Shown here piece after piece: positions 1-48,324 of a stretch of 64,000 nt of DNA. The notes beneath the pieces were generated by a model. That model saw nothing but the letters and a program-made list of their open reading frames with translations. It made no database searches and was not told where the DNA came from. The position numbers were made by a program, and so were the translations under genes. The stretch comes from Squalus acanthias (taxonomy: Eukaryota): contig CM059432.1 in the NCBI GenBank assembly GCA_030390025.1, forward strand, positions 48,920,001-48,984,000, in the 5' to 3' direction. Position 1 is the first letter of the stretch. Every line of letters begins with the position of its first letter.

Positions 1-3000
1 GAGGGAGGGGGCAGTGATCGGGAGAGGGAGGGGGCAGTGATCAGGAGAGGGAGAGGCAGTGATCGGGAGACGGAGGAGCAGTGATCGGGAGAAGGAAAGG
101 GCAGTGATCGGGAGAGGGATGGGCAGTGATCAGGAAAGGGTGAGGCAGTGATCGGGAGAAGGAGTGGGCATGTGATCGGGAGAGGAAGGGGCAGTGATCG
201 GGAGAGGGAGGGGCGGTGATCGGGAGAGGAAGGTGACAGTGATCGGGAGAGGGTGGGGGCAGTGATCAGGAGAGGGAGGGTCAGTGATCGGGAGAGGGAG
301 GGGGCAGTGATCGGGAGAGGGAGGGGGCAGTGATTGGGAGATGGAGGGGGCAATGATCGGGAGAGGGAGGGGGCAGTGATCGGGAGAGGGAGGGGGCAGT
401 GATTGGGAGATGGAGGGGCAGTGATCGGGATAGTGAGGGTGCAGTGATCGGGAGAGGGAGGGGGCAGAGATCGGGAGAAGGAGAGGCAGTGATTGGGAGA
501 GGGAGAGGCAGTGATCGGGAGAGGGAGGGGGCAGTGATCTGGAGAGGGAGGGGGCAGAGATCGGGAGAAGGGGGCAGTGATCGGGAGAGGGAGGGGGCAG
601 TGATCGGGAGAGGGAGGGGGCAGAGATCGGGAGAAGGGGGCAGTGATCGGGAGAGGGAGGGGGCAGTGATCGGGAGAGGGAGGGGGCAGTGATCGGGAGA
701 AGGAGGGGGCAGTGATCGGGAGAGGGAGAGGCAGTGATCGGGAGAGGGAGGGGGCAGTGATCGGGAGAGGGAGGGGCGGTTATCGGGAGAGGGAGGGGCG
801 GTGATCGGGAGAGGGAGGGGACAATGATCGGGAGAGGGAGGGAGCAGTGACCGGGAGTGGGAGGGAGCAGTGATCGGGAGGGGGGGCAGGATCGGGAGAG
901 GGAGGGGGCAGTGATCGGGATAGGGAGGGGTCAGTGATCGGGAGGGGGGGCAGGGATCGGGAGAGGGAGGGGGCAGTGATCGGGAGAGGGAGGGGGCAGA
1001 GATCGGGAGGAGGGGGCAGAGATCGGGAGAGGGAGGGGCAGTGATCGGGAGAGGGAGGGGCAGTGATCGGGAGAGGGAGGGGCGGTGATCGGGAGAGGGA
1101 GGGGCGGTGATCGGGAGAGGGAGGGGACAGTGATCGGGAGAGGGCGGGGCAGTGATCGGAGAGGGAGGGGCAATGATCGGGAGAGGAATTGGCAGTAATC
1201 GGGAGAGGGAGGGGCAGTGATTGGGATAGTGAGGGTGCAGTGATCGGGAGAGGGAGGGGGCAGTTCTCAGGAGAGGGAGGGGGCAGTGATCGGGAGTGGG
1301 AGGGGGCTGTGATCGGGAGAGGGAGGGGGCAGTGATCGGGAGAGGGAGGGGGCAGTGATCGGGAGAGGGAGGGGACAGTGATCGGGATAGGGAGGGTGCA
1401 GTGATCAGGATAGTGAGGGTGCAGTGATCGGGAGAGGGAGGGGGCAGTGATCGGGAGAGGGAGGGGGCAGAGATCGGGAGAAGGAGGGGGCAGTGATCGG
1501 GAGAGGGAGAGGCAGTGATCGGGAGAGGGAGGGGGCAGGGATCGGGAGAGGGAGGGGACAGTGATCGGGAGAGGGAGGGGACAGTGATCGGGAGAGGGAG
1601 GGGACAGTGATCGGGAGAGGGCGGGGCAGTGATCGGAGAGGGAGGGGCAATGATCGGGAGAGGAATTGGCAGTAATCGGGAGAGGGAGAGGCAGTGATCG
1701 GGAGAGGGAGGGGCGGTGATTGGGAGAGGGAGGGGACAGTGATCGGGAGAGGGCGGGGCAGTGATCAGAGAGGGAGGGGCAATGATCGGGAGAGGAATTG
1801 GCAGTAATCGGGAGAGGGAGAGGCAGTGATCGGGAGAGGGAGGGGCAGTGATCGGGATAGGGAAGGGGCAGTGATCGGGATAGGGAAGGGGCAGTGATCG
1901 GGAGAGGGAGGGGCAGTGATCGGGATAGTGAGGGTGCAGTGATCGGGAGACGGAGGAGCAGTGATCGGGAGAAGGAGGGGGCAGTGATCAGGAGAGGGAT
2001 GGGCAGTGATCAGGAAAGGGAGAGGCAGTGATCGGGAGAAGGAGTGGGCAGTGATCGGGAGAGGAAGGGGCAGTGATCGGGAGAGGGAGGGGCGGTGATC
2101 GGGAGAGGGAGGTGACAGTGATCGGGAGAGGGTGGGGGCAGTGATCAGGAGAGGGAGGGTCAGTGATCGGGAGAGGGAGGGGGCAGTGATCGGGAGAGGG
2201 ATGGGGCAGTGATCGGGAGAGGGAGGGGGCAGTGATCAGGAGAGGGAGAGGCAGTGATCGGGAGACGGAGGAGCAGTGATCGGGAGAAGGAAAGGGCAGT
2301 GATCGGGAGAGGGATGGGCAGTGATCAGGAAAGGGAGAGGCAGTGATCGGGAGGAGTGGGCAGTGATCGGGAGAGGAAGGGGCAGTGATCGGGAGAGGGA
2401 GGGGGCAGTGATCGGGAGAGGGAGAGGGCAGTGATCGGGAGAGGGAGGGGGCAGTGATCGGGAGAGGGAGGGGGCAGTGATTGGGAGATGGAGGGGCAGT
2501 GATCGGGATAGTGAGGGTGCAGTGATCGGGAGAGGGAGGGGGCAGAGATCGGGAGAAGGAGAGGCAGTGATCGGGAGAGGGAGAGGCAGTGATCGGGAGA
2601 GGGAGGGGGCAGTGATCTGGAGAGGGAGGGGGCAGAGATCGGGAGAAGGGGGCAGTGATCGGGAGAGGGAGGGGGCAGTGATCGGGAGAGGGAGGGGGCA
2701 GAGATCGGGAGAGGGAGGGGGCAGAGATCGGGAGAAGGGGGCAGTGATCGGGAGAGGGAGGGGGCAGTGATCGGGAGAGGGAGGGGGCAGTGATCGGGAG
2801 AGGGAGGGGGCAGAGATCGGGAGAAGGAGGGGGCAGTGATCGGGAGAGGGAGAGGCAGTGATCGGGAGAGGGAGGGGGCAGTGATCGGGAGAGGGAGGGG
2901 CGGTTATCGGGAGAGGGAGGGGCGGTGATCGGGAGAGGGAGGGGACAGTGATCGGGAGAGGGCGGGGCAGTGATCGGAGAGGGAGGGGCAATGATCGGGA

Positions 3001-4933
3001 GAGGAATTGGCAGTAATCGGGAGAGGGAGAGGCAGTGATCGGGAGAGGGAGGGGCAGTGATCGGGATAGGGAAGGGGCAGTGATCGGGATAGGGAAGGGG
3101 CAGTGATCGGGAGAGGGAGAGGCAGTGATCGGGATAGTGAGGGTGCAGTGATCGGGAGAGGGAGGGGGCAGTTCACAGGAGAGGGAGGGGGCAGTGATCG
3201 GGAGACGGAGGAGCAGTGATCGGGAGAAGGAAAGGGCAGTGATCGGGAGAGGGATGGGCAGTGATCAGGAGAGGGAGAGGCAATGATCGGGAGAAGGAGT
3301 GGGCAGTGATCGGGAGAGGAAGGGGCAGTGATCGGGAGAGGGGGTGGCGGTGATCGGGAGAGGGAGGTGACAGTGATCGGGAGAGGGTGGGGGCAGTGAT
3401 CAGGAGAGGGAGGGTCAGTGATCGGGAGAAGGAGTGGGCAGTGATCGGGAGAGGAAGGGGCAGTGATCGGGAGAGGGAGGGGGCAGTGATCAGGAGAGGG
3501 AGTGTCAGTGATCAGGAGAGGGAAGTGGCAATAATCGGGAGAAGGATGGGGCATTGAACGGGAGAGGGAGGGGTAGTGAACGGGAGAGGGATGGGGCAGT
3601 GATCGGGAGAGGGAGGGGTCAGTGATCGGGAGAGGGAGGGGTCAGTGATCGGGAGAGGGAGGGGTCAGTGATCGGGAGAGGGAGGGGGCAGTGATCGGGA
3701 GAGGGAGGGGGCCGTGATCGGGAGAGGGAGGGGTCAGTGATCGGGAGAGGGAGGGGTCAGTGATCGGGAGAGGGAGGGGCAGTGATCGGGATAGTGAGGG
3801 TGCAGTGATCGGGAGAGGGAGGGGGCAGTTCTCAGGAGAGGGAGGGGGCAGTGATCGGGAGTGGGAGGGGGCTGTGTTCAGGAGGGGGAGAGGCAGTGAT
3901 CAGGAGAGGGAGGGGGCAGAGATCGGGAGAAGGAGGGGGCAGTGATCGGGAGAGGGAGAGGCAGTGATCGGTAAAGGAAGGGGGCAGTGATCGGGAGATG
4001 GAGTGGCAGTGATCGGGATAGGGAGGGTGCAGTGATCTGGAGGGGGAGGGGCAGAGATCGGGAGGAGGGGTCAGTGATCGGGAGAGGGAGGGGCAGTGAT
4101 CGGGAGAGGGAGGGGCGGTGATCGTGAGAGGGAGGGGACAGTGATCGGGAGAGGGCGGGGCAGTGATCGGAGAGGGAGGGGCAATGTTCGGGAGAGGAAT
4201 TGGCAGTAATCGGGAGAGGGAGAGGCAGTGATCGGGAGAGGGAGGGGGCAGTGATCAGGAGAGGGAGGGGGCAGCGATCGGGAGAGGGAGGGGGCAGTGA
4301 TCATGGGAGGGACGGGCAGTGATCGGGAGAGTGAGGGGGCAGTGATCGGGAGAGTGAGGGGGCAGTGATCGGGAGAGGGAGGGGCAGTGATCAGGAGGGA
4401 GGGGCAGTGATCGGGAGAGGGAGGGGGCAGTGATCGGGAGACGGAGGGGCAGTGATCGGGAGTGGGAGGGGGCTGTGTTCAGGAGGGGGAGAGGCAGTGA
4501 TCGGGAGAGGGAGGGGGCAGTGATCGGGAGAGGGAGCAGGCAGTGATCGGGAGAGGGAGGGGGCAGAGATCGGGAGAAGGAGGGGGCAGTGATCGGGAGA
4601 GGGAGGGGGCAGTGATTGGGAGAGGGAGGGGCGGTGATCGGGAGAGGGAGGGGCGGTGATCGGGAGAGGGAGGGAGCAGTGATCGGGAGAGGGCGGGGCA
4701 GTGATCGGAGAGTGAGGGGCAATGATCGGGAGAGGAATTGGCAGTAATCGGGAGAGGGAGACGCAGTGATCGAGAGAGGGAGGGGGCAGTGATCGGGAGA
4801 GGGAGGGGCATTGATCGGGAGAGGGAGGGGCAGTGATCGGGATAGTGAGGGTGCAGTGATCGGGAGAGGGAGGGGGCAGTGATCGTGACAGGGAGGGGGC
4901 AGTGATCAGGAGAGGGAGGGTGCAGTGATCGGG
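1..4933. repeat. G-rich minisatellite, 22-23 bp unit (GTGATCGGGAGAGGGAGGGG(G)CA), running off the left edge
   Basis: Continuous tandem copies with variant units (GAGATC, GTAATC, GGATAGTGAGGGT). All Gly/Arg- and Pro-rich ORFs at 399-5138 are translations of it. Confidence 0.98.
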
Positions 4934-7682: not shown

Positions 7683-8207
7683 TACGTGTTACATGGGAGA
7701 AGGAGACACTCATTTGAGCATGCACTAAATGGGAATCAATGAGCAGACTGTCCTCAATGAACCAAATCAGCAAGACTGGTTCAATACTAGTGACTTTTCA
7801 CTGGGTGGCACTTGATGAGGAACTGACAAACTCATCTTGGTTATGACTATAAATAAACCATATTTCCTCCAAGTCCAGAACCTCCGATCATAGCAACAGG
7901 GTCAATGCCTTTGTCAATATACCTCATTAGTCTAAATAAAGTTGCCAAAACTCTTTCAAGCAACTGAAGACTTTTATTGTGACAGCAATTGTACCGAGCC
8001 CCCCAAAAATGCGCAGTGTTATAAATCTCTTAATTATCTTTAGCAGTTATAGCTATTTCTTTAGTTAAAAAATCCTTGGGGCATAATGTTGGATTTTGGC
8101 TTAATTTTTAAGTCATATCATGCTGTCTGAGATTAGTTAACTCAGTACAAACCAGAGATTGAACTGAAGACCATGCAGCATGTTTTGGATCCAAACAATG
8201 CAGATTT

Positions 8208-11200
8208 AAAAAAATTCGTTCCTGGGGTGTGGGTGTCACTGGCAAGGCCAGCATTTATTGCCCATCCTTAATTGCCCTTGAGAAAGTGGTGCTGAGCCGC
8301 CTTCTTGAACCGCTGCAGTCCGTGCGGTGAGGTGTTGTTAGGGAGGGAGCTCCGGGATTTTGACCCAGCGACGATGAAGGAACAGCGATATAATTCCAAG
8401 TCAGGATGGTGTGTGACTTGGAGGTGATGGTGTTCCCATGTGCCTGCTGCCCTTGTCCTTCTAGATGGTAGAGGTCACAGGTTTGGGAGGTGCTGCCGAA
8501 GAAGCCTTGGCGAGTTGCTGCAGTGCATCTTGTAGATGCTACACGCAGCAACCACGGTACGCCGGTGGTGGAGGGAGTGAATGTTTAAGGTGGTGGATGG
8601 GGTGCCAATCAAGCGGGCTGCTTTGACCTGGATTGTGTCGAGCTTCTTGAATGTTGTTGAAGCTGCACTCATCCAGGCAAGTGGAGAGTATTCCATCACA
8701 CTCCTGACTTGTGCTTTGTAGATGGTGGAAATGCTTTGGGGAGTCAGGAGGTGAGCCACTCACCACAGAATACCTAGCCTCTGACCTGCTCTTGTAGCCA
8801 CAGTATTTATGTGGCTGGTCCAGTTAAGTTTCTGGTCAATGCTGACCCCCAGGATGTTGATGGTGGGGGATTTGGCGATGGTAATGCGGTTGAATGTCAA
8901 CGGGCGATGGTTAGACCCTCTCTTGTTGAAGATAGTCATTGCCTGGCATTTGTGTGGCGCGAATGTTACTTGCCAATTATCAGAGCCAGCCTGAATGTCG
9001 TCCAGGTCTTGCTGCATGCGGGCATGGACTTCTTCATTATCTGAGGATTTGTGAATGGAACTTAACACTGTGCAATCATCAGCGAATATCCCCACTTCTG
9101 ACCTTATGATGGAGGGAAGGTCATCGATGAAGAACTGAAAATGGTTGGGCCTAGGACACTGCCCTGAGGAACTCCTGCAGTGATATCCTGGGGCTGAGAT
9201 GATTGGCCTCCAACAACCACAACCATCTTCCTTTGTGCCAGGTATGACTCCAGCCAGTGGAGAGTTTTCCCCCTGATTCCCATTGACTTCTGTTTTACTC
9301 GGGCTCCTTGGTGCCACTCTCACCTCACCTCTGGAATTCAGCTCTTTTATCTATGTTTGGACCAAGGCTGTAATGAGGTCTGGAGCCAAGTGTTCCTAGT
9401 GGAACCCAAACTGGCCATTGGTGAGCTTGTTAATGGTAAGTAAGTGCCACTTGATAGCACTGTCGACGACGCCGTCCATCACTTTGCTGATGATTGAGAG
9501 TAGATTGATGGGGCGGTAATTGGCCAGATTGGATTTGTCCTGCTTTTTCTGGACAGGACATACCTGGGCAGTTTTCCACATTGTCGGGTAGATGACAGTA
9601 TTGTAGCTGTACTGGAACAGCTTGACTAGAAGTGTGGCTAGTTCTGGAGCACAAGTCTTCAGCACAACAGCCGGGATGTTGTCGGGGCCCATAGATCTTG
9701 CTGCATCCAGTGTGCTCAGCCGTTTCTTGATATCACGTGGAGTGAATCGAATTGGCTGAAGACTGGCTTCTGTGATGGTGGGGACTGCAGGAGGAGGCCG
9801 AGATGGATCATCCACTTGGCACTTCTGGCTGAGGTTGGTTGCAAACACTTCAGCCTTGTCTTTTACACTCGTGTGCTGGGCTCTGTCATCACTGAGGATA
9901 GGGATATTCATGGAGCCCCCTCCTCCCAGTAGTTGTTTACTGGTCCACCACCATTCACGAATGGATGTGGCAGGACTGCAGAGCTTTAATCTAATTCATT
10001 GGTTGTGGAAATCGCTTAGCTCTGTATATAGCATGCTGCTTCTGCTGTTTAGCATGCATGTAGTCCTGTGTTTCATCTTCCCCAGATTGGTAGCTCACTT
10101 TTAGGTACACCTAGTGCTACTCCTGGCATGCTCTTCTACACTCCTCATTGAACCAGGGTTGGTCCCCTGGCTTGATGGTAATGGTAGAGTGAGGGATATG
10201 CCGGGCCAGGAGGTTACAGATTGTGGTGGAATACAATTCTGCTGCTGCTGATGGCCCACAGTGCCTCATGGATGCCCAGTTTTGAGCTGCTAGATCTGTT
10301 CTAAATCTATCGCATTTAGCACGGTGGTAGTGCCACACAATACGATGGAGGGTGTCCTCAATGTGAAGACAGAACTTCGTCTCCACAATGACTGTGCGGT
10401 GGTCACTGCTACCAATACTGTCATGAGCAGATGCATCTGCGACAGGTAGATTGGTGAGGATGAGGTCAAGTAGGTTTTTCCCTCGTGTTGGTTCTCTCAC
10501 CACCTGCCGCAGGCCCAGTCTGGCAGCTATGTCCTTCAGGACTCAGCCAGCTCGGTCAGTAGTGGTGCTACTGAGCCACTCTTGGTGATGGACATTGAAG
10601 TCTCCCACCCAGAGTACATTCTGTGTCCTTGCTACTCTCAGTGCTTCTTCCAAGTGGTGTTCAACATGGAGTACTGATTTATCAGCTTATGGAAGGCAGT
10701 AGATGGTAATCAGCAGGAGGTTTGTTAGAAATTAGGGTATCCAAAATATATGGGGTTATGCGAATGAAATTGTGACGTGAATAAGACTGTGTTTACATGA
10801 CTGTATTAGAACTTGAGACAAAAAGTCTCTTGAGACTAGTATTAGAATAAGTAGATAGATGCTTAGAATCTGCTTGTGTTTTGGTTCCCTGCGGATGTCA
10901 TAACATTCTGCAGCGTGACTATCATATATGACCTTGTTTCCAGGCTAGCTATCTGCTGTTTGTAAGTTAGGATTTCAACTTTGTTTATGTATCTCTAGTT
11001 TGACCAACTAAGGCTCAACGCCTATGTTTCTTCTATCATTACTAATAACCATGTTATAATGCTAAGGTAGGAACTGGAGTTCGCTTAATAAAACTGCTTG
11101 CGAAGCTTTGTAGAAGTTAATTAAGTATAAGGACATAGAATTGAAGGAATTTATGGGGGCTAATATATCATCTCAGGGTAGAATAGTCTGTTAGTTTAAG

Positions 11201-12580
11201 GGGAGATAGTTTGGATAACAACAGGCTGAGCAGACAGCTCTAACATGGGCCCCTGATTAAGAGGGTACAAGGCTGGCTTTATCAGGGAGGATAGGGACAA
11301 GAGAGATAAGACGAATTCCAATGGAGGAACGTTCAGGATGTATAAACAGGAAAGACAAATTGGAAAAAAAGAACATGAGACCCCTTTAGGCGAGGGCTTT
11401 CATCTGAAAGTTAAGACAAAGAACTCGACATGCCATTGGGCATTGGGATAGGTTTAGGAAGAGCCCTTACAGGTTAAATAGGTCCTGTCAATATTTTACA
11501 TCAGGCCACCCCTAAAAAAAGAGAAAGACCTGAAAAGGCCTTAGCACAAACGGTGGAGGGGAGAGCCATACAAGAGTGGGGCTGGTCTAACACTCTTCTG
11601 GGAGTGGACCCATTCTTGGAGGTTCTAGGCGAGAGGAAAAAGGCCATAAGCTGGAGAACTGTTCACGCACACCAGCTGTCTGTCCGATCAGGACCGGTAC
11701 CAACTGCTTGTCATGGTCGTGTGTTTTTGCTGTATAACTAATGTGTTATATTCCATCTTAAACTCTGATTAAACACAATATTCTCACCATATTGGTTTGC
11801 AGTCGATTCTAATTATCTGAAAGACCAGAGATAATCTAATCTCTACAGGTTTCCTTGCCCATGCTTGACCTGACGTCATGAGACTTCATGGGGTCCGGAG
11901 TCAATGTTGAGGACTCGCAGGGCCACTCCCTCCCGACTGTATACCACTGTGCCGCCACCCCTGGTGGGTCTGTCCTGCCGGTGGGACAGGACATAACCAG
12001 GGATGGTGATGGAGGAGTCTGGGACGTTGACTGAAAGGTATGATTCTGTGAGTATGACTGTCAGGCTGTTGCTTGACTAGTCTGTGGGACAACTCTCTTA
12101 ATTTTGACACAAGTCCCCTGATGTTAGTGAGGAGGACTTTGCAGGATCGACTGGGCTGGATGTGCCTTTGTCGTGACTTAAGCCAGTGCCTAGTTTGATG
12201 CTGGGTGGTCCGTCCTGTTTTATTCTTATTATTGTTTTTCGTAGCAGTTTGGTACAACTGAGTGGCTTGCTAGGCCATTTCAGAGGGCAGTTAAGAGTTA
12301 ACCACATTGCTGTGGGTCTGGAGTCACATGTAGGCCAGACCAGATAAGGGTGGCAGATTTCCTTCCCTAAAGGACATTAATGAACCAGATGGGGTTTTAT
12401 GACAATCCGGTAGTTTCATGGTCACAAAGACTGACACTAGCTTTTTATTCCAGATTTATTTAATTAACTGAATTTAAAGTCCCCAGCTGCCATGATGGGA
12501 TTTCAACTCATGTCTCTGGATCATTAGTCCAGGCCTCTGAATGACTAGTGCAGTAACATAACCACTATGCTACCGTACCC
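8208..12580 (-). mobile_element. Family A LINE (CR1 superclade, Zenon-like), full length, degenerate single EN-RT ORF with tRNA-like 5' head; interrupted by a solo LTR
   Basis: Minus-strand ORF pieces TNIRGL, LLDLILTN...SSDH, GPDNIP...NYRPI, FADD, IYKAQVRSVMEY. A box at 12562-12572, B-like box at 12498-12509, A-rich tail at about 8208. Confidence 0.93.
10723..11847. mobile_element. Solo LTR (1125 bp) of an ERV or LTR retrotransposon
   Basis: Starts TGTTAGAA and ends CTCTACA, flanked by the 4-bp duplication GGTT (10719-10722 and 11848-11851). Removing it restores the LINE sequence seen uninterrupted at about 19206-19232. ATTAAA near 11768. Confidence 0.85.
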
Positions 12581-12585
12581 ATAAA

Positions 12586-13452
12586 TAGATGACGCTAAGG
12601 AGCCACAGTAAATTGTGTAGATGGGAGCAGGAAGTTTCAAAGCGACATAGGCAGATTAAGTGAATGGGGTGTGGCAGATGGAATTCGGCAGATGGAATTC
12701 AATGTGGGGAAATGTGAGTTCACACACTTTGGATCCAAGAAAGACAAATAGGAATATTTTCTTAATGATGAGAGACTAGGAATTGTGGAGGGGCAAATGG
12801 ATTTGGGTATCCAGGTACATCACCTTTTGTACCTGTGATCTAGCATTTATTTAAAAAGGCTAATGGAATGGTGACCTTTAGCTCAAGTGGGCTGGAATAC
12901 AAGGGCGAGGAAGTGATTAGTCAGTTGTGCAGAGCCTTGGTCAGACCCCATCTAGTCTAATGCAATCAGTTTTGGGCACCGCACCTCAGGAAGGATATAC
13001 TGGCCTTGGAGAGGTACAGCACAGATTCACCAGAATAATACCAGGTCTTAAAGGGTTAAGTTATGAAGACGCGTTACATAAACTGATTATATTCCCTTAA
13101 ATTTAGACTGTCGAGGGGTGATCTAATTGAGTTGTTTAAAATGATAATGGGATTTGCTAGGGTAGATACAGAGAAACTATTTCCTCTGGTTGGAGAATAG
13201 AGAAACACAGGGTAAAATCTTACAATTAGAGCTAGACCATTCAGGAGCGAAATCATGAAGCATTTCTTCCACACAAAAGGTATTGGAAATCTGTAACTCA
13301 CTCCCCTAAAAAGGTTGTGGATGCTGGGTCAATTGAAATTTTCAAGACCAAGATTGACATATTTATTAGGCAAAGGTATCAAGAGTTATGGATCAAAGGT
13401 GGGTAAATGGAGTTGAGGTGCAGATCAGCCATGATTTAACAGAATCCTATGT
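12586..13452 (+). mobile_element. Old CR1 LINE 3' fragment
   Basis: Decayed DD.K, WQMEFNVGKCE, RALVRPHL and RGDLIE coding motifs, plus the GATCAGCCATGAT 3' UTR motif. Confidence 0.85.
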
Positions 13453-15848
13453 CCAGACATCCGTTACAAACATTCGGTAAAAATGCTGTGCTGAAATGAA
13501 AATTAAGTATACGGTCATGAAATAGTTGTTTGCAGTATTCATCAAAAAAACTAAACATTATAATACTGGAATACTTTCAGTCTGATACAAAAGCACATTC
13601 ATAGCCCTCAAAAGATTAATAATAGAATGCAATATAAAGGGCCACACTTAACCAATAGAAAGATAATTTTTTCTATATTGTTGTTGCAGTTATGGAGGTC
13701 AAACATTCTGTTCCATTTTCTACTAATGCACGATGTGATTGGCATCCTGCCATAAACAAGTTTAAAATCCACATCCTTTCAAGTTACAGTTATAAACATT
13801 ATTTTATCCCTGATTTACCATGCAACTAACTCATTTTTAAATATCCTGTTACAGTGATACCAGTTCTGAATGTTTACTTTGAAGGTATTTACTTTCAAGA
13901 CAAAATAAATGAATGGCCCCTTCCCTCAACAAAACATAGTGGGGTTTGAATTCCACTGTGCAATACATGTAATGCAATGTAATGTTCATGCATTTGCATG
14001 AAATGTATCTGTTTGCTGTTCTAACCAAATTGTTAACCCATTTCAACCTCAATAATAACTAGCTCTTGATCTGTTCATGACCACATCATTTTGGACCCAT
14101 GCCCCCAACACACACGCGCCAACCCACATTCCAAGATCATTTCTTTTTCAAAGTTCTTTTTTGCTTCAATTCTAATACATTTTGTTTATTTTCCTTCCAA
14201 TTTGGCTTACATGGCTCAGAAATGTTATTTGTAAATGGAAAAAGAAGCCAACGGACAGTGCAATTAATTAACTACTTAATCTACACTCAGACAAGATATG
14301 TTTGGAACATGGCATTCTACCATTCCAGAACAGAGAAAGGATTAGATTCTGAAACTTCCCAAACTTCATCGCAACAGTTATCACTCATCATTTTAAAGTA
14401 AAATCTGGGAGCAATCATTAAATCACATTTTAAAACTCAAAAATAATGTACACATAAAGAATACGGATGGGTCAGACATTTCTGGGTTCTTGATTTTAGA
14501 ATAATCTTAGTGTATAACACCACAGGTATTACATGCAACATATTAATCCTTAATGAACCCAGAAATATAAATGCCAATGGTGAATAAGAAACAATTATCT
14601 TCAAGAGAGACAGACCACCACCAAAATGGTAAGTGTTTTGTCAGGATGGGATGCTTCTGCTTCTATAAAACCAAGAAATAATGCATGTTTGCAATGTTAA
14701 GCAGAGGCACATCATATAACATATGTACAATATAGACAGATGAGCACATGAAATACATAGGACATGTTTACGCGTTGCATTACTTAAGTGTGCTGTACCA
14801 CAGCTTAAATAATGGCTTTTCACCCCCATGTCAAATATTTCATCTATGTTTGTTTGTAATCAATTGCATTAGAAGCACCTGACACTATGCAGTTTATTTT
14901 TTTCTTTCCCACTGCCTAAAGATTAGGTGCCTTTCCACGAAAGTTACCACAACGTTTTCTCTCCCCAGAGTAATGTATGAATTATGCTCTGAATGTTGTC
15001 ACCCTGCTGTCTCATTCAATAGACTGATGGCACAGCTGCTGGTTTTTTTTCCCAGGGCAATTTGTATCATGGTGTGAAAACTGCCTGATTTGCCCCAGAG
15101 GCGATGCATCAACTTCTTTATTTATCTCAGCAACAAAATAATCCTTGCTGGGTAAATTTCATTTCAGTATAATTTTAAACTGATTGAACTTCAAGTCGGA
15201 TTGTTTTCATCTCCCTGAAGTAAATGGAGTTTGAGGGATCGCAGTCGAAGTGTTTCTTAACAGAAAACTGCTCCTATATTCGTCAGTTATCTGTTAATCG
15301 ATGTCAAATAATCTTCATGTTTCCTCCCTTTTCTTGGACTCCCTTGACCATTGACGATTTTGTAAAGCACCTTCTATACTCCAATATCAGGTTCCATTCG
15401 TTTTTAACCGACCGCTCTGTTGCAATATTTACATTAAAAATAAAACTCCCAGCTTTTTTTCCTAACGATTTGCTACAATACAATATGAAACTCGGACAGC
15501 AAGTCACAATGACAACATACTCTTATGACACTAATGTTTTAATCACTAAACGTGTGAAGAAAGCAAGTTTCCATTCGGCAAGCGATTTAAAGTTCTAACA
15601 AATACTTCTGTGCAGTTTCGTCCGGTGAATAAAACCAATAAAATGAATGGCCACCTCTATTTAATAAGCTGACCTCTAACTGCCACTAAATTGCATTCCC
15701 TGCAGATTACTTTATTTACTTGCATAGTTGTCTCAATTCTTGATTTGTCCAAATTTGATTTTAAACAAACGTTGGGCAACAGGGCTATTTCCTTCACTAA
15801 ACCTGTCAATTTCCTTAATCGAGTTGCCGTTGCAGGAACAATACTTAC

Positions 15849-15885
15849 ATCTCTGGTTCCGGCGTTTGCCTTTAACCATACTCAT
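15849..15885 (-). CDS. Candidate short first coding exon (MSMVKGKRRNQR, phase 1) of an unidentified gene
   Basis: ATG at 15885 and a consensus donor GTAAGTAT immediately after 15849, in a repeat-free region. No homologue recognised. Confidence 0.25.
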
Positions 15886-15982
15886 TCTAAACGGGTCCAG
15901 GTTTCTTCTGTAGTAATCACACTCAAAGACAATGAATGAAAAGGCTTCTCCTTCTTTTCAGGGAGGCAGTTGTTCTACTCAC

Positions 15983-16103
15983 CGACAGAAAGTAACCAGT
16001 GATCTAACAGCAGCAGCCAGGATGATACCATTTACATGATATAACAGGGGAGTAAGAGGCTCCACTCTGCAATGGATGCTAAAGAGATGTGTTCTGCCGA
16101 ATT
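15983..16103 (-). other. Candidate 121-bp exon (UTR or coding)
   Basis: Acceptor TTTTTATTTGAAACAG and donor G|GTGAGT; one frame is open throughout (FGRTHLFSIHCRVEPLTPLLYHVNGIILAAAVRSLVTFC). Confidence 0.2.
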
Positions 16104-16522
16104 CTGTTTCAAATAAAAATGCTCTCGAAGGAGTAAATAAAACAAAGGTCGAATCTCACATTTCACAAGATCTTAAACTAGAATTTTCCATGCTAAACAT
16201 TTTTTGGAACTGCTTTTCTCACATTCTAAGTGATTTTTCAGAATAGTTCATTACTTCATACAATATCTGAGCAATATTACTGAGCATGCAGCTGGCGGTG
16301 TTAACAGGGGTTAGTGCATTCGGAATCAGGTAATGTGTTATATTTTACATGCAAGTTAACTCTGTAGCCAATGTGACCTGAACTGATTCCTTTCAGGCTC
16401 ATTTCCAAAGGCCCAGCGATGCAGATGCACCTGTTTTTTTTTAAATAAAGGAGGAGCACATGAACAGAATTTTTCACTTTCTCCTCCTACATACAACCAT
16501 CAAAGCTGGCATTCACTGGATG

Positions 16523-16889
16523 TAGTGTTGCCAACCCTGGTTGAAAGTATTCCTGGAGGTTTCATCACATGACCCGCCCCCACGCTCCCGCCATTGGTCG
16601 CCCGACACATCCATCCTTGCGGCACACCACCTTCCCATGCCGATTGGAAAGCGAAAAGATTCTAAATTACCCATTTGCTTGATGCTTGACTGTCAGTCAA
16701 ACAGCCTGTTTTCCCCATCTCCAATACTTTTATAACTAATAAATGGAAGTGTTCAAAGAAAATGGAAGAAACACAATCTTTTTTAATGCCCCTATGATTT
16801 TCTCTAGGGTTGCTCGCAGCAGTGTCTTGGAGATTAATTTTCAATTCCTGGAGATTCCAGGCCAATCCTCCTGGAGTGTTGGCAACCTA
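16523..16889. mobile_element. Non-autonomous hAT DNA transposon
   Basis: TIRs TAGTGTTGCCAAC ... GTTGGCAACCTA and a perfect 8-bp TSD ACTGGATG (16515-16522 and 16890-16897); 8-bp TSDs are typical of hAT. Confidence 0.88.
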
Positions 16890-17036
16890 ACTGGATGATT
16901 GCTGTTTGCCACAAGATTCCGGGGGTGGTGGGGGGGGGGGTGTTTGCAAGGCATCACCATGTTCCATGTTAGGGCACTCAGCCTGCAGGGGTGGGGGCTA
17001 TTTATGATCTGTATACCTCCATATGTCTTTGCATTC

Positions 17037-17038
<2 letters not shown>

Positions 17039-17070
<32 letters not shown>
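17039..17070. repeat. (TG)n microsatellite
   Basis: Direct reading. Confidence 0.97.
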
Positions 17071-17074
<4 letters not shown>

Positions 17075-17757
17075 GGTGGATGGATTAGGGGGGATGGATG
17101 GTGGTGAGGATGTGGCTACACGGCTGTAACCTAAGTTATTGGCTTCACAAACCTGTGAGCTTTACAGACGGAAGCCAAAACACAAACACTACTTTCCAGT
17201 ATAGATTTCCACATGCACCAATGTTTAACCAATCACAACAAGATTCTAAACCATGCAAGATATCTGTGCCAATAAACGGAAAATTCACAAGGTACCAGGT
17301 ATAGGTCCACATCATACATAGGGAGATGGCTTCCACCGTAATGCAAGATGATTGATTTTGCAATATTATATGACGTGGGTGGCCCAACAGTATGGCTGCA
17401 GGGATATCATGGAAGTGTAAGAGAGGTGCTTTTATGGCAAGCCTCTGGTCTCAGCTAAACCATTGGAAATGAAGCGCTAAGTGAAAGTGAATAGTTACCC
17501 CCACAGGGTAAGTGAACAAAAATTGGAGAAGTTGATCTATGGCACTCTTGTACACCTCCAAGTAGCTGGTTACAAAGCAACCTTGTCAGGGATGGGGAAT
17601 AATTCATCAGTGTTCTGTCTCAAATCAGGGATAGTGCATGGAGCATGGAACTCACTAAGGCAGAGAAAATAATATTGCAGGATGTGGGGGCAAAATTTCA
17701 CACATTGATTTAATAATGAACATAATAGTTAGATAAACTAGTAGAATCTAATATAGG

Positions 17758-18092
17758 ATCATAGAATGATATAGCACAGAAGGAGGCCATTCGGCCCATC
17801 GTGCCTGTGCCAGCACTTTGGCAGAGCTATCCAATTACTCCCACTCCCCTGCTCTTTCCCCATAGCCCTGAAACTTTTTCCCATTTATAATGCAGATATT
17901 TCATAAAAATGTATAAATATATTAATGTATTAAAAAGTAATAGAATCATAGAAACTTACAGCACAGAAGGAGGCCATTCGGCTCATTGAGTCTGTGCTGG
18001 TTCTTTGAAAGAGCAGTTGTGCTTAGTCGCCCGCCCACTTATTGTCCGTAACCCTGTAATTCCTCATCATCATCCTCAAGTACCTGTCCAAC
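17758..18092 (-). mobile_element. Two short CR1-type 3' tail fragments (about 17758-17885 and 17940-18092)
   Basis: Both begin ATCATAGAA...AGCACAGAAGGAGGCCATTCGGC, the reverse complement of a CR1 3' end with a short-repeat tail. Confidence 0.65.
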
Positions 18093-18174
18093 AATTTTTA
18101 CATTGTTTTATTCTAATTATAAATGAATTGTATTTTTTTTTGTAAGTGTATATTTGATCAAGTGTATATTTGAT

Positions 18175-18497
18175 CGGATGAGATGTAAAACCAAGGCCCC
18201 GTCTGCTCTCTCAGGTGGATGTAAAAGATCCCAAGTCACTATTTCGAAGAAGAGCAGGGGAGTTATCCCTGGTGTCTTGGCCAATATTTCTCCCTCAATC
18301 AACATCACTAAAGACAGATTATCTGGTCATTATCACATTGCTGTTTGTGGGAGCTTGCTGTGTGCAAATTGGCTGCCACGTTTCCCACATTACAACAGTG
18401 ACTACACTTCAAAAAGTACTTCATTGGCTGTAAAGCGCTTTGAGACGTCCGGTGGTCGTGAAAGGTGCTATATAAATGCAAGTCTTTCTTTCTTTCT
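18175..18497 (+). mobile_element. Deu-domain SINE (SacSINE1/AmnSINE-like), 5'-truncated
   Basis: CGGATGAGATGTAAAACC...CAGGTGGATGTAAAAGATCCC...GAAAGGTGCTATATAAATGCAAGTC(TTTC)n; closely similar to 43410-43733. Confidence 0.85.
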
Positions 18498-18518
18498 TAC
18501 TTACTTTAATTTGTATTT

Positions 18519-21500
18519 GGTAGCATAGTGGTAATGTCCCTGGACTAATGATGTGAGTTCAAATCCCACCACGGCAAATGGGGAATTTAAATTTAGTTAA
18601 TTAAATAAATCTGGAATAAAAAGCTAGTATCAGTAATGGTAACCATGAAACTATCGGATTGTTGTAAAAACCCATCTGGTTCACTAATGTCCTTTAGGGA
18701 AGGAAATATGCCGTTCGTACCTGGTCTGGCCGATATGTGACTCCAGACCCAAAGCAATGTGGCTGACTCTTAACTGCCCTCTGAAATGGCCTAGCAAGTC
18801 ACTCAGTTGTAACAAACTGCTACGAAACACAATAATAAGAATGAAACCGGACGGACCACCCAGCATCGACCTCGGCACCGGCTACTGACATGGCAATGGC
18901 ACACCCAGCCCAGTCAACCCTGCAAAGTCCTCCTCACCAACATCTGGGGATTTGTGCCAAAATTGGGAGAGCTGTCCCACAGGCTAGTCAAGCAACAGCC
19001 TGACAAAGTCATACTCACAGAATCATACCTTTCAGCTAATGTTCCAAACTCCTCCATCACCATCCCTGGGTTTGTCCTGTCCCACAGGCAGGATAGACCC
19101 ACCAGGGGTGGTGGCACAGTGGTATACAGTCAGGAAAGAGTGGCCCTGGGAGTCCTCAACATTGAATCCAGACTCCATGAAGTCTCATGGCTTCAAGTCA
19201 AGCATGGGCAAGGAAACCTCCTAGTGATTACCACCTACCGCCCTCCCTCAGCTGATGAATCAGTACACCTCCATGTTTAGCACCACTTGGAAGAAGCACT
19301 GAGAGTAGCAAGGGCACAGAATGTACTCTGGGTGGGGGACTTCAATGTCCATCACCAAGAGTGGCTCGGTAGCACCACTACTGACCGAGCTGGCCGAGAC
19401 CTGAAGGACATAGCTGCCAGTCTAGGCCTGCGACAGGTGGTGAGAGAACCAACACGAGAGAAAAACCTACTTGACCTCGTCCTCACCAATCTACCTGTCG
19501 CAGATGCATCTGTCCATGACAGTGTTGGTAGCAGTGACCACCGCACAGTCATTGTGGAGATGAAGTCCTGTCTTCACACTGAGGACACCCTCCATCGTGT
19601 TGTGTGGCACTACCACCGTGCTAAATGGGATAAATTCAGAACTGATCTAGCAGCTCAAAACTGGGCATCCATGAGGCGCTGTGGGCCATCAGCAGCAGCA
19701 GAATTGTATTCCACCACAATCTGTAACCTCATGGCCCGGCATATCCCTCACTCTACCATTACCATCAAGCCAGGGGACCAACCCTGGTTCAAATAAAGAG
19801 TGTAGTAGAGCATGCCAGGAGCAGCACCAGGCGTACCTAAAAATAAGGTGCCAACCTGGGGAAGCTGCAACACAGGACGACATGCATGCTAAAAAGCGGA
19901 AGCAGCATGCTATAGACAGGGCTAAGCGATCCCATAATCAATGGATCAGATCAAAGCTCTGCAGTCCTGCCACATCCAGTCGTGAATGGTGGTGGACCAT
20001 TAAACAACTAACGGGAGGAGGAGACTCCATGAATATCCCCATCCTCAATGATGGTGGAGCCCAGCATGTGAGTGCAAAGGACAAGGCTGAAGCGTTTGCA
20101 ACCATCTTCAGCCAGAAGTGCCGAGTAGATGATCCATATTGGCCTACTCCTGAGGTCCCCACCATTACAGAAGCCAGTCTTCAGCCAACTCCACGTGATA
20201 TCAAGAAACAGCTGAGCGCACTAGATACAGCAAAAGCTATGGGCCCCGACAACATCCCGGCTGTCATGCTGAAGACTTGTGCTCCAGAACTAGCCGCGCC
20301 TCTAGCCAAGCTGTTCCAGTACAGCTACAACACTGGCATCTATCCAACAATGTGGAAAACTGCCCAGGTATGTCCTGTCCACAAAATGCAGGACAAATCC
20401 AATCAGGCCAATTACCGCCCCATCAGTCTACTCTCAATCATCAGCAAAGTGATGGAAGGTTTCATCAAAACTGCTATCAAGCGGCACTTACTCACCAATA
20501 AACTAATTTGTCAGGGGGATGGGAAAAAGGGCTGTAGTCCACGAGCCAGTGGTGAGTGTAGGGAGGTACTGAGGAGGGTATCAAGGTCGCAGGAATGTAC
20601 CGGCAGACAGGAAGATGGCTTGAAGTGTGTCTACTTCAATGCAAGGAGCATCCGGAATAAGGTAGGAGAACTTGGAGCGTGGATTGGTACTTGGGACTAC
20701 GATGTGGTGGCCATTACGGAGACATGGTTAGAACAGGGACAAGAATGGTTGTTGGAAGTTCCGGGGTATAGATGTTTCAGTAAGAGTAGGGAAGTTGGTA
20801 AGAAAGGTGGAGGAGTAGCATTGTTAATCAAGGATAGTTTAACAGCGGCAGAAAAGCAGTTCGAGGGGGATCTGCCGTCTGAGGTAATATGGGCTGAAGT
20901 TAGAAATAGGAAAGGAGCGGTCACGTTGTTAGGAGTTTTCTACAGGCCCCCAAATAGTAATAAAGATGTGGAGGAAGAAATTGCAAAGCAGATTATGAAT
21001 AGGTGTGGAGGTCACAGAGTAGTTGTCATGGGTGACTTCAACTTTCCAAATATTGATTGGAACCTTTATAGGTCAAACAGTTCGGATGGGATAGTTTTTG
21101 CACAGTGTGTGCAGGAGGGTTTCCTGACACAATATGTGGATAGGCCGACAAGAGCTGGGGCCACGTTGGATTTGGTACTGGGTAATGAACCGGGCCAAGT
21201 GTTTGATTTGTATGTGGGAGAGCACTTTGGAGATAGTGACCACAATTCGGTAACTTTCACTATTGCAATGGAGAGGGATAGGGCCATACAGCAGGGCAGG
21301 GTTTATAATTGGGGGAGGGGTAATTATGATGCGATTAGGCAAGAATTAGGGAGTATAAGATGGGAACAGAAACTATCAGGGAAAGGCACAAACGAAAAGT
21401 GGAGCTTTTTCATGGAGCAATTACTGCGTGTCCTTGATAGGTATGTCCCTGTCAGGCAGGGAGGAAATGGCCGAGTGAGAGAACCATGGTTCACAAAAGA

Positions 21501-24500
21501 GGTTGAATGTCTAGTCAAGAGGAAAAAGGAAGCGTATGTAAGGATGAGAAAACAAGGTTCAGTTGGGTCGATTGAGGGGTACAAGGTAGCAAGGAATGAG
21601 CTAAAAAAAGAGCTTAGGAGAGCTAGGAGGGGGCATGAGAAGTCCTTGGCGGGTCGGATCAAGAAAAACCCCAAGGCTTTTTACTCTTATGTGAGAAATA
21701 AAAGAATGACCAGGGTGAGGGTAGGGCCGGTCAAGGACAGTAGTGGGAACTTGTGCATGGAGTCAGAAGAGATAGGAGAGGTGATGAATGAATACTTTTC
21801 GTCAGTGTTCACCGAGGAGAGGGGCCATGTTCTTGAGGATGAGAGTGTGATAAAGGTGGATAGGCTGGAGGTGGTAGATGTTCTGAGGGAAGATGTTTTA
21901 GCAATTTTGAAGAACCTGAGGGTCGATAAGTCCCCTGGGCCAGATGGGATATATCCTAGGATTCTTTGGGAGGCAAGGGAGGAGATTGCAGAGCCTCTGG
22001 CTTTGATCTTTGGGTCCTCACTGTCCACGGGGATGGTGCCAGAGGACTGGAGAGTGGCGAATGTTGTTCCTCTCTTCAAGAAAGGAAATAGGAATGACCC
22101 TGGTAATTATAGGCCGGTTAGTCTTACTTCGGTGGTTGGTAAGATAATGGAAAAGGTCCTGAGGGATAGGATTTATGACCATTTGGAAAGGGGCAACTTC
22201 TCAGGGATAGTCAACACGGATTCGTGAAGGGTAAGTCTTGCCTAACAAATTTGATTGAATTCTTTGAGGAGGTAACTAAGTGTGTAGATGAAGGTAGAGC
22301 AGTTGATGTCGTATACATGGATTTTAGTAAGGCGTTTGATAAGGTTCCCCATGGTCGTCTCATGAAGAAAGTAAGGAGTTGTGGGATAGAGGGAAATTTG
22401 GCCGAATGGATAAGTAACTGGCTATCTCATAGAAGGCAGAGGGTGGTGGTGGATGGAACATTTTCGGACTGGAGACCAGTTACCAGCGGTGTGCCACAGG
22501 GGTCGGTGCTGGGTCCTCTGCTGTTTGTGATTTTTATCAATGACTTGGAGGAGGGGACTGAAGGGTGGATCAGTAAATTTGCTGATGACACCAAGATTGG
22601 TGGAGTAGTGGATGAGGTGGAGGGCAGTTGTAGGCTGCAAAGAGACATTGATAGGATGCAGAGCTGGGCCGAAAAATGGCAGATGGAATTTAACCCTGAT
22701 AAGTGCGAGGTGATTCATTTTGGTAGGGCAAATTTGAATAAGGATTACAGGGTCAACGGCAGGGTTCTGAGGAACGTGGAGGAGCAGAGGGATCTGGGGG
22801 TTCATATCCACAGATCTCTGAAGGTTGCCACTCAAGTGGATAGAGCAGTAAAGAAGGCCTATGGTGTGTTGGCGTTTATTAACAGAGGGTTTGAGTTTAA
22901 GAACCATGAGGTTATGCTGCAACTGTACAGGACCTTGGTGAGACCACATTTGGAATATTGTGTGCAGTTCTGGTCACCTCACTATAGGAAGGACGTGGAA
23001 GCATTGGAAAGAGTGCAAAGGAGATTTACCAGGATGCTGCCTGGTTTGGGGGGAGGTCTTATGAGGAAAGATTGAGGGAGTTGGGGCTTTTCTCTTTAGA
23101 GCGGAGGAGGATGAGAGGCGACTTAATAGAGGTTTATAAGATGATGAGGGGGATAGATAGAGTGGATGTTCAGAGACTATTTCCTCGGGTAGAGGCAGCT
23201 GTTACAAGGGGGCATAACTATAAGGTGCATGGGGGGAGATATAGAAGGGATGTCCGAGGTAGATTCTTTACTCAGAGAGTGGTTGGGGTGTGGAATGGAC
23301 TGCCTGCTGTGATAGTGGAGTCGGACACTTTAGGAACTTTCAAGCGGTTATTGGATAAGCACATGGAGCACACCAGAGTGATAGGGAGTGTGATAGCTTG
23401 ATCTTGGTCTCGGACAATGCTCGGCACAACATCGAGGGCCGAAGGGCCTGTACTGTGCTGTACTGTTCTATATGTATCTATGTAACCTGCTCACTGATGC
23501 CCAGTTTGGGTTCCGCCAAGACCACTTGGCTCCCGACCTCATTACAACCTTGGTCCAAACATGGACAAAGGAACTGAATTCCGGAGGTGAGGTGAGAGTG
23601 ACTGCCCTTGACATCAAGGCAGCATTTGACCGAGTGTGGCATCAAGGATCCCCAGTAAAACTGAAGTCAATGGGAATCGGGGGGAAAACTCTCCACTGGC
23701 TGGAGTCATATCTAGCACAAAGGAAGATGGTTGTGGCGGTTGAAGGTCAATCATCACAGCCCCAGGACATCGCTGCAGGAGTTCCTCAGGGCAGTGTCCT
23801 AGGCCCAACCATCTTCAGCTGCTTCATCAAAGACCTTCCCTCCAATATAAGGTTAGAAATGGGGATGTTCGCTGATGACTGCACAGTGTTCAGTGCCATT
23901 CACAACTCCTCAGATAATGAAACAGTCCATGCCCGCATGCAACAAGACCTGGACGACGTTCAGGCTTGGGCTGATAAGTGGTTGGTAACATTCGTGCCAC
24001 AGAAGTGCCAGGCAATGACTATCTCCAACAAGCGAGAGTCTAACCACCGCCTCTTGACATTCAACGGCATTACCATCGCCGAATCCCCCCACCATCAACA
24101 TTCTGTGGGTTACCGTTGACCAGAAACTTAACTGGACTAGCAACATAAATACTGTGGCAACAAGAGCAGGTCAGAGGCTAGGTATTCTGCAGCGAGTGTC
24201 TCACCTCCTGACCCCCCAAAGCCTTTCCACCATCTACAAGGTACAAGTAAGGAGTGTGATGGAATACTCTCCACTTGCCTGGATGAGTGCAGCTCCAACA
24301 ACACTCAAGAAGGTCGACACCATCCAGGACAAAGCAGCCCGCTTGATTGGCACCCCATCCACCACCTTAAACATTCACTTCCTCCACCACGGCGTACCAT
24401 GGCTGCAGTGTGTACCATCTACAAGATGCACTGCAGCAACTCGCCAAGGCTTCTTCGGCAGTACCTCTCAAACCCGCGACCTCTACCACCTAGAAGGACA

Positions 24501-24766
24501 AGGGCAGCAGACGCATGGGAACACCACCACCTCCAAGTTCCCCTCCAAGTCACACACCATCCTGACTTAGAAGTATATCGCCGATTCTTCATCGTCGCTG
24601 GGTCAAAATCCTGGAACTCCCTACCTAACAGCACTGTGGGAGTACCTTCACCACATGGACTGCAGTGGTTCAAGAAAGTGGCTCACCACCACCTTCTCAA
24701 GGGCAATTGGGGATGGGCAATAAATGCTGGCCTTGCCAGTGATGCCCACATCCCATAAACAAATAA
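18519..24766 (+). mobile_element. Family A LINE, essentially full length (about 3.26 kb once the nested CR1 is removed); a few stops and frameshifts
   Basis: A box at 18521-18531 and B box at 18555-18566. EN motifs TNIWG, ILTESYL, TYRPP, VGDFN, LDLVL, SDH. RT motifs ALDIKAAFDRV, GVPQGSVLGP, FADD. C-terminus HHHLLKGN. Confidence 0.95.
20502..23482 (+). mobile_element. CR1 LINE with complete ORF2 (EN+RT, two frameshifts) and 3' UTR, nested in family A; ORF1 absent
   Basis: YFNARSIRNK, AITETWL, FYRPPNS, MGDFN, SDH, YMDFSKAFDKV, GVPQGSVLGP, KFADDTK, LVRPHLEY. Tail GTTCTATATGTATCTATG. The host sequence CCAATAA/TAACCTGCTC resumes on both sides (TAA duplicated). Confidence 0.96.
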
Positions 24767-28191: not shown

Positions 28192-28396
28192 TAGCAAAAT
28201 ACTGCGCATGCTGGAAATAACAACAGAAAATGCTGGAAGCAGTCAGCAGGCCAGGCAGCATCCGTGGAGAGAAAAACAGAGTTAACGTTTCAGGTCTGAT
28301 GAAGAGTCACAGACCTGAAACGTTAACTCTGTTTCTCTCTCCACGGATGCTGCCTGGCCTGCTGAGTGCTTCCAGCATTTTCTGTTGTTATTTCAA
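28192..28396. mobile_element. Penelope-like element (PLE) inverted terminal-repeat foldback
   Basis: Near-perfect arms GAAATAACAACAGAAAATGCTGG...GTTAACGTTTCAGGTCTG and its reverse complement; the arm matches 63487-63600, which adjoins PLE coding sequence. Confidence 0.85.
28296..28329 (+). ncRNA. Minimal hammerhead ribozyme core (PLE type)
   Basis: CTGATGA - stem II - GAAACGTT; stem II is imperfect (AGAGTC ACA GACCT) and the 5' strand of stem I is replaced by the inversion. Confidence 0.5.
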
Positions 28397-31057: not shown

Positions 31058-31185
31058 GGCAAAACAGCCTAGATTTTCCGACATTCTAACAGTGACCACA
31101 CTTTAAAAGTACTTCATTGGCTATAATACGCTTTGGGACATCCTGAGGTCGTGAAAGGTGCTGTATAAATGCATGTCTTTCTTCT
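31058..31185 (+). mobile_element. Deu-SINE 3' tail fragment
   Basis: AACAGTGACCACACTTTAAAAGTACTTCATTGGCT...GTCGTGAAAGGTGCTGTATAAATGCA matches 18393-18480. Confidence 0.8.
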
Positions 31186-43312: not shown

Positions 43313-43733
43313 TCAGAAGGTCGAGGGTTCAAGTCCCACTCCAAAGACTTGAACATTGACTCTCCAGTGCAGTACTGAGGGAGTGCAGCACTGTCGGAGG
43401 TGCCGTCTTTCGGATGAGACGTTAAACCATGGCCTCTCAGGTGGAGGTAAAAGATCCTATGGCACTATTTTGAAGTAGAGCAGGGGAGTTATTCCCGGTG
43501 TCCTAACCAATATTTATCCCTCAATCAACATCACTAAAAAAACAGATTATCTGGTCATTATCACATTGCTGTTTGTGGGAGCTTGCTGTGCACAAATTGG
43601 CTGCCACATTTCCGAAATTACAACAGTGACTGCACTTCAAAAAAAAGTACTTAATTGGCTGTAAAGCGCTTTGGGACGTCTGGTGGTCGTGAAAGGCACT
43701 ATATAAATGCAAGTCTTTCTAACTTCTTTCTTT
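43313..43733 (+). mobile_element. Deu-domain SINE (SacSINE1/AmnSINE-like), nearly full length
   Basis: B box GGTTCAAGTCCC, Deu core CAGTGCAGTACTGAGGGAGTGCAGCACTGTCGGAGGTGCCGTCTTTCGGATGAGACGTTAAACC, and an L2-like tail. Confidence 0.88.
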
Positions 43734-48200: not shown

Positions 48201-48324
48201 TTAACATCGGCACTCCTGGTCAGGAAGATTCCTGGTCTGTGTTAACTGAACTTTAGTGGGATGAGGGTAGGGGAGCTACAACTGGCCTCAGTCCTCTGGG
48301 TAAGGAAGGGAAAACATCAGCTAC

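Follow-up and report, generated by a model that had tools for sequence, protein, structure and literature searches.

The window, the whole 64,000-nt stretch of Squalus acanthias DNA analysed here (contig CM059432.1; source genome size 3.7 Gb), holds two interrupted copies of one LINE family (Table 1). The stretch flagged in an earlier note (18519-24766) is a single Zenon copy (copy 1), consisting of 18519-20504 and 23483-24766 with a 2,978-bp CR1 in between; it is a degraded representative of an abundant LINE of sharks. Copy 2 lies on the minus strand (12580-8204) and is interrupted by a 1,125-bp insertion that looks like a solo LTR. Both copies, called full-length in the earlier note, are thus interrupted, and both carry stops or frameshifts. 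The head of copy 1 has lost the first 7 nt of the family head and 28 internal nt, and that of copy 2 is intact. In cmscan, the two window heads were the only tRNA hits in 12000-19000, with 20.5 and 20 bits against a gathering cut-off of 29. The ORF of copy 1 starts with an Arg-rich N-terminal stretch, followed by an AP endonuclease (EN) from about 18922; no in-frame AUG lies ahead of the EN, and an out-of-frame ATG is found at 18841. The RT of the nested CR1 is 33% identical to that of its host element. Possible target site duplications, detected as 4-6 nt matches in 13 of 20 family copies, were in many cases at chance level.

Table 1. Features of the two Zenon copies and associated elements, in window coordinates.
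Feature	Position	Strand	Remarks
Separate SINE fragment upstream of copy 1, outside the LINE	18174-18498	+	Another copy at 43410-43732
tRNA-derived head, copy 1	18519-18575	+	A box 18521-18531, B box 18557-18565
Leader core, copy 1	18653-18828	+	Near-identical in sharks and a ray; ends at hairpin-like motif
Hairpin-like motif with 7-nt loop	18787-18801	+	3' end of leader core, copy 1
In-frame TAA; in-frame GCT	18810-18812; 18819-18821	+	Leader end, copy 1
Single EN-RT ORF, 5' part	18813-20504	+	Copy 1; decayed
Nested canonical CR1 (EN-RT)	20505-23482	+	Unrelated; 12 runs of four or more T
ORF 3' part, short 3' UTR, A-rich tail	23483-24766	+	RT and C-terminus, to about 24709
Copy 2, 5' part	11848-12580	-	Complete tRNA-like head; older subfamily
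Insertion in copy 2	10723-11847	-	1,125 bp; TG..CA ends; 4-bp target duplication
Copy 2, 3' part to tail	8204-10722	-	
Family fragment, internal deletion form	58283-58931	+	76 nt just behind leader joined to 3' 576 nt

Several other repeats occur in the window. A second tRNA-SINE family with a TTTC-repeat end is present at 18174-18498, 43320-43732, and 31075-31183, and we take it to resemble Deu-type SINEs. At least two canonical CR1 families are represented (20505-23482, 41346-42944, and 48323-49902, plus shorter copies), of which the nested CR1 is near full ORF2 length and frameshifted. Positions 1-4933 consist of a large minisatellite-like array in which a 23-bp unit recurs about 220 times in tandem (85% matches) and which is G-rich on the plus strand, with related C-rich arrays at 54405-55105, and a 56-bp tandem repeat (4.2 copies, 98% matches) lies at 62218-62454. 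A 180-bp near-perfect palindrome (94.5%) at 28214-28394 is MITE-like, with related pieces at 63489-63623.

We found that the tRNA-like head with A and B boxes belongs to the LINE itself. The earlier note had reached this view from the presence of the head on both window copies (that on the minus strand starting at 12580), and genome-wide linkage confirmed it. Searching the genome with the head yielded 4,702 candidates; 40 of them were scored, 30 loci were retrieved, and all 29 non-self loci ran into the ORF; as the fetched loci were the best matches to copy 1, this sample is biased towards the copy 1 subfamily. About 21 of the 29 shared the start GGG(A/T)ACG and had unrelated flanks, as judged by eye, which puts the 5' end of the family 7 nt upstream of the motif first quoted as its start; the head as such is real. 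In the reverse test, anchored in the EN, four of 29 loci reached nt 1-3 and two more reached nt 15-31, the remainder having staggered 5' truncation points, up to nt 798. None of these 29 loci extended 5' beyond the head, and their upstream flanks had nothing in common apart from one duplicated pair and a piece of another repeat. Across the genome, an exact gapped pattern reaching from the leader into the ORF had 2,900 matches.

In the consensus head, the A box is located at nt 9, and an anticodon-like arm present in duplicate separates it from the B box near nt 74; the 5' end of the element thus lies 8 nt ahead of the A box, a spacing like that of Pol III SINEs. Older heads have a single anticodon-like arm, and two of them were called tRNAs by ARAGORN. 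The element therefore carries the tRNA-derived head that characterizes tRNA-SINEs (SINE2), but at 3.3 kb the LINE is neither short nor non-coding, a description that holds only for its derivatives of roughly 400-450 nt. Among the host's own Gln, Ser, Cys, and Lys tRNAs, the only ones compared, those closest to the head were Gln and Ser. The genome also contains long tandem arrays of tRNA-Ser(GCT) genes with 1,623-bp spacing and of tRNA-Lys(TTT) genes with about 1,780-bp spacing, located on C26 of G000 at about 39.0-40.9 Mb and on C2208, C29, and C1484.

A consensus was built from 18 copies, comprising 16 of 20 fetched long loci and both window copies, from which single copies diverged by 1.9-7.5%. 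It is about 3.3 kb long and has one ORF (nt 330-3248, 973 codons) encoding AP endonuclease and RT, followed by a short 3' UTR and an A tail, in agreement with the A-rich tails on full-length copies. The single EN-RT ORF, the lack of room for ORF1, and the unit length of about 3.3 kb had all been recognized in the earlier note; its leader of about 290 bp, on the other hand, proved to measure 329 nt in intact copies. No intact ORF was found among 80 loci, in which the longest open stretch was 476 codons.

The consensus matches SquAca_Zenon-1, a catalogued family, almost letter for letter over the 400 nt compared by eye (the first 400 nt), and the lengths are similar (3,314 nt for SquAca_Zenon-1 vs. 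about 3,310 nt here). The source study (Stuart et al., 2026; PMC13343379) reports Zenon elements from five elasmobranch species, each of them lacking ORF1 and ending in poly-A, and the absence of ORF1 is a known trait of Zenon elements throughout. With its single EN-RT ORF lacking ORF1 and its poly-A tail, the element is by sequence an elasmobranch Zenon, an ORF1-less LINE of the CR1 group, in line with its original placement. In an RT tree of 32 rows, none of them a named Zenon, it was set apart, at 99/98, from the nested CR1 as well as from a sea-urchin protein. The nearest database proteins were 35-37% identical over the full length and mostly unnamed. One of the proteins inspected, a shark FERM-domain protein model (P0006), has a first stretch of about 120 residues corresponding to the RT of this Zenon (67% identity), probably a gene-model artefact, although exonisation may also account for it. 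Another, the Zenon-like relative P0015, has a 2A-like NPGP motif before the endonuclease, which is absent from the shark element.

The head is not restricted to Squalus acanthias. All seven published elasmobranch Zenon consensuses (SquAca_Zenon-1, -2, and -3 and the Zenon-1 rows of CarCar, RhiTyp, ScyCan, and HypSab; PMC13343379) start with it, as judged by eye from the first 400 nt of each. The A and B boxes are kept in these rows, with a one-base gap in the B box of the ray, and the stretches between and behind the boxes vary; overall, the shark and ray elements are about 16% apart. By the same inspection of 400 nt, the head is absent from the two hagfish rows and the one coelacanth row, which are rich in T runs. 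Among metagenome relatives, no upstream A plus B box pattern was detected in the 73 analysable loci of 80 fetched, and blastn with the head gave no match to these loci, many of whose contigs are 5'-incomplete; relaxed ARAGORN searches of the same loci returned 141 matches, mostly spurious. Inspected by eye, two of these relatives, L131 and L137, which are unrelated to each other, shared a conserved non-coding segment of about 60 nt in front of the ORF, which may be a structured 5' UTR or a ribozyme.

Besides the LINE form, we detected short head-to-tail forms in which the leader is joined to the last 60-250 nt of the element. These had 275 matches with a tight pattern and 1,666 with a wider, exact one, compared with 2,900 for the LINE form. 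Their junctions are many and different, recurring as subfamilies, and young short forms carry the diagnostic letters of the young LINE at both ends, a combination that fits repeated internal deletion of the headed LINE. Such deletions are thus likely to turn the headed LINE directly into SINEs. The oldest leader type, in contrast, was observed in the short form only, with 0 of 30 copies continuing into the ORF, so that a Zenon LINE may at first have captured the front end of a SINE. A search for ORF-linked leaders of the old type gave 13 matches, which by eye were young copies with one change.

Given the SINE-like head, we evaluated the element for Pol III terminators. Neither subfamily consensus (3.3 kb) contains a sense-strand run of four or more T, vs. 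14-16 runs of four or more A, and 13 of 18 single copies are likewise free of such T runs; with a divergence of only 2.2%, the two subfamilies do not count as independent tests. None of 73 distant relatives was free of these runs, the minimum being three, a contrast confounded by host composition because the relatives are mostly far more T-rich (21-36% T vs. 19% here). Within the ORF, five TTT runs were observed where synonymous shuffles predicted 11.4 (P 0.002), an observed-to-expected ratio of 0.45, compared with at least 0.72 in 55 relatives. Runs of four T were expected 1.5-1.9 times under composition-matched nulls (P 0.115 and 0.236), while a mononucleotide null gave P 0.009, and the z-scores for T3 (-2.5) and T4 (-1.6) did not go beyond those of the relatives, whose minima were -2.7 and -2.6. 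Much of the missing TTTT therefore reflects low T content, and T4 absence alone is weak evidence, given also that LINE base composition is reported to vary widely for other reasons in the available text of bioRxiv 10.1101/788562. Just behind the B box, runs of four or more T occurred in 8 of 23 old SINE-form copies vs. 0 of 29 young LINE heads. Assembled contigs from four presumed RNA runs contained the element in pieces, from which start, strand, and level are not readable, and showed head-to-tail joints in several organisms. The evidence for Pol III, to which the position and conservation of the A and B boxes also contribute, is circumstantial but consistent, and on balance we consider that the element is probably transcribed by this polymerase. 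We know of no natural class of long translated Pol III RNAs. Promoters of non-LTR elements in general are referred to as 'pol II (or pol III)' in a passage of PMC3894237.

The ORF would also need an unusual mode of translation. In the consensus, the EN begins at codon 39 and the first in-frame Met is codon 287; no in-frame ATG lies ahead of the EN in 76 of 84 copies, and in 68 of 81 a TAA at nt 327-329 closes the frame. Given this closed frame and the lack of an in-frame AUG before the EN, translation would have to begin on a non-AUG codon located from nt 330 to about nt 440. In four other species, an in-frame ATG was likewise unseen by eye in the visible part of the published rows, three of which stop 10-13 codons before the EN. 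An out-of-frame ATG at nt 358 opens a 48-codon uORF, which we considered as an essential mini-ORF1 and rejected, given that the ATG is present in just 43 of 78 copies and that all five subfamily changes in nt 358-460 alter the uORF frame, three of the five being silent in the EN frame.

The leader core (nt 170-345) hardly varies among sharks and a ray and is more strongly conserved than the tRNA part. At the leader 3' end, a possible hairpin with AGC in its 7-nt loop is followed by a 10-nt spacer of constant length (72 of 74 copies) and an in-frame GCT. Length variants downstream of the GCT keep the frame in 13 of 15 cases, which slippage in AAT repeats could also explain. By eye, the GCT is in frame in the published rows of all four other species, the whale-shark row shifting frame just upstream of it, and the published SquAca_Zenon-1 row is one base shorter in the leader-end region than the copies analysed here. 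Old and young leaders differ by one compensatory pair (nt 192-264), and hairpin-flanking pairs co-change in only three related old copies. The folding energy of the leader was ordinary relative to shuffles (z -0.5 and 0.1), the AGC hairpin was not part of the minimum-energy fold, and no Rfam IRES family matched the leader at E<=10. Comparison with known SINE bodies gave no positive identification: as a candidate Deu or UCON3 domain, the leader had short motifs that were unmatched in the searched supplement files of PMC7245038 and PMC4824008 and in the full-text literature searched, and the UCON3 rows inspected do not resemble it.

Together, these features suggest, with moderate confidence, an autonomous Pol III-transcribed LINE whose translation starts from a non-AUG codon and which spawns SINEs by internal deletion. 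TFIIIC would bind the A and B boxes of the head, and Pol III would read through 3.3 kb because no T4 terminator is in the way, producing an uncapped LINE RNA. Ribosomes would then be recruited by the conserved leader and enter at a non-AUG codon just behind it, and the RNA would be copied by ORF2p via target-primed reverse transcription, each full-length copy regaining the promoter. Loss of everything between about nt 300-350 and the last 60-250 nt would leave a ready-made tRNA-SINE. In the L1 system, according to the available text of Kroutter (2009; PMC2666806), retroelement RNA made by Pol III retrotransposes without ORF1p. Given that all Zenon elements lack ORF1 and that Pol III RNA can be independent of ORF1p, the switch to Pol III may have been eased; being common to all Zenon elements, the absence of ORF1 is not a consequence of the head.

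The main alternative, which we regard as possible yet doubtful, is a Pol II LINE that captured a SINE head once and retained it, with its RNA arising from the leader or by read-through, and with the boxes maintained not as a promoter but as TFIIIC sites for chromatin opening or insulation. LINEs are generally Pol II units (PMC5786205, in the passages available), the T-run deficit is statistically modest, conservation is strongest in the leader core and not in the tRNA part, and the restriction of the oldest leader to SINE forms is consistent with capture from a SINE. However, an AUG start is what one would expect of a capped RNA, and the frame offers none, the SINE-like distance between 5' end and A box resembles a Pol III unit, and the T content and TTT use are the lowest among the elements compared. 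It is improbable that the tRNA mimic acts instead as a processing signal, with co-transcription from a host promoter and an RNase P cut setting the 5' end. This would be analogous to the ribozymes of R2 or L1Tc and would suit the sharp 5' boundary, the recognisable D, anticodon, and T arms, and the two old SINE-form heads called tRNAs, but in the consensus the 5' strand of the acceptor stem does not match its 3' strand by eye, no cloverleaf fold is obtained for the head, and processing offers no reason for T-run avoidance. That the head is an adjacent or chimeric SINE outside the replicating unit, as the abundance of SINE forms with the same head might suggest, is refuted for practical purposes by the head-ORF linkage counts, including the 2,900 exact leader-to-ORF matches, by subfamily-diagnostic changes common to head and ORF, by the identical join in five species, and by the 29 EN-anchored loci without an alternative 5' end.

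Within the preferred reading of a Pol III-transcribed LINE, the leader invites comparison with the dicistrovirus intergenic (IGR) IRES, in which a mimic of the anticodon-codon pair sits immediately ahead of the first codon and sets a non-AUG start (PMC3894237, as described in the passages available); its putative counterpart here would be the AGC loop, which could pair with the GCT. The same passages raised the possibility of IGR-type IRESs in LINEs. Unlike the viral element, the shark leader has no Rfam match and an ordinary folding energy, and the likeness is no more than a resemblance. A fuller version of the Pol III reading, in which the uncapped RNA would be translated via an IGR-IRES-like leader with AGC loop-GCT pairing setting the start, the element would have lasted from the shared ancestor of sharks and rays onwards, and SINEs would have been born repeatedly, is conceivable but unlikely as a whole.

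The Zenon family and its lack of ORF1 are known from the literature searched, so that the novelty originally implied is confined to the head and its consequences. The main text of PMC13343379, which deals with the same family, never mentions a tRNA head, Pol III, a promoter, a start codon, or an IRES, and does not discuss the T-run deficit, the missing AUG, or SINE derivatives. A tRNA-headed Zenon or its SINE was undescribed in the full-text literature searched, Repbase, Dfam, and subscription journals lying outside that scope. Pol III-type 5' ends may occur on some Ingi/Vingi elements, which belong to a different clade from Zenon; if real, they would be a precedent for a LINE with an RNA-derived head. 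The passages of citing papers examined do not state such heads for autonomous Ingi/Vingi elements. In Lepidoptera, a Zenon LINE yields the short, internally deleted Persaeus elements made of its 5' and 3' parts; in the available text, Persaeus has no tRNA homology or Pol III promoter, and the 5' part of lepidopteran Zenon likewise has no Pol III promoter (PMC6740152), whereas the shark deletion product is a SINE in structure because it includes a Pol III-type promoter. Bov-tA and SINE2-1_ACar/Vingi-2_ACar similarly combine a tRNA head with LINE 5' and 3' parts (PMC5786205; PMC4494074), but in such bipartite tRNA-SINEs, as far as these sources were accessible, the head joins after deletion, while here the coding LINE itself is headed. 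Passages of Kojima (2018; PMC5786205) accordingly describe SINEs as arising from a Pol II parent by a deletion that precedes the addition of a head, and list bipartite forms only for RTE, Ingi, Vingi, and R2. The cartilaginous fish SINEs SacSINE1 (Deu), CmiSINE (CORE), and HE1 (V) are also tRNA-headed; compared by description, the tails of SacSINE1 and CmiSINE are L2 (PMC5499810) and HE1 pairs with HER1, and a Zenon tail appears in none of the available descriptions of the three.

In practice, the divide between SINEs and LINEs is one of polymerase, with non-coding Pol III elements on one side and coding Pol II elements on the other. An abundant autonomous LINE with a SINE head across sharks and rays blurs this divide. 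The element also points to a one-step route from LINE to SINE, which touches the open question of how SINE bodies originate, as raised in the available parts of PMC5786205, and it provides a natural, compact test case of whether translation and retrotransposition of a 3.3-kb Pol III RNA are possible when cap, AUG, and ORF1p are all missing. If the proposed reading is true, the elasmobranch Zenon would be a natural protein-coding retrotransposon made by Pol III, repeatedly giving rise to SINEs by simple deletion.
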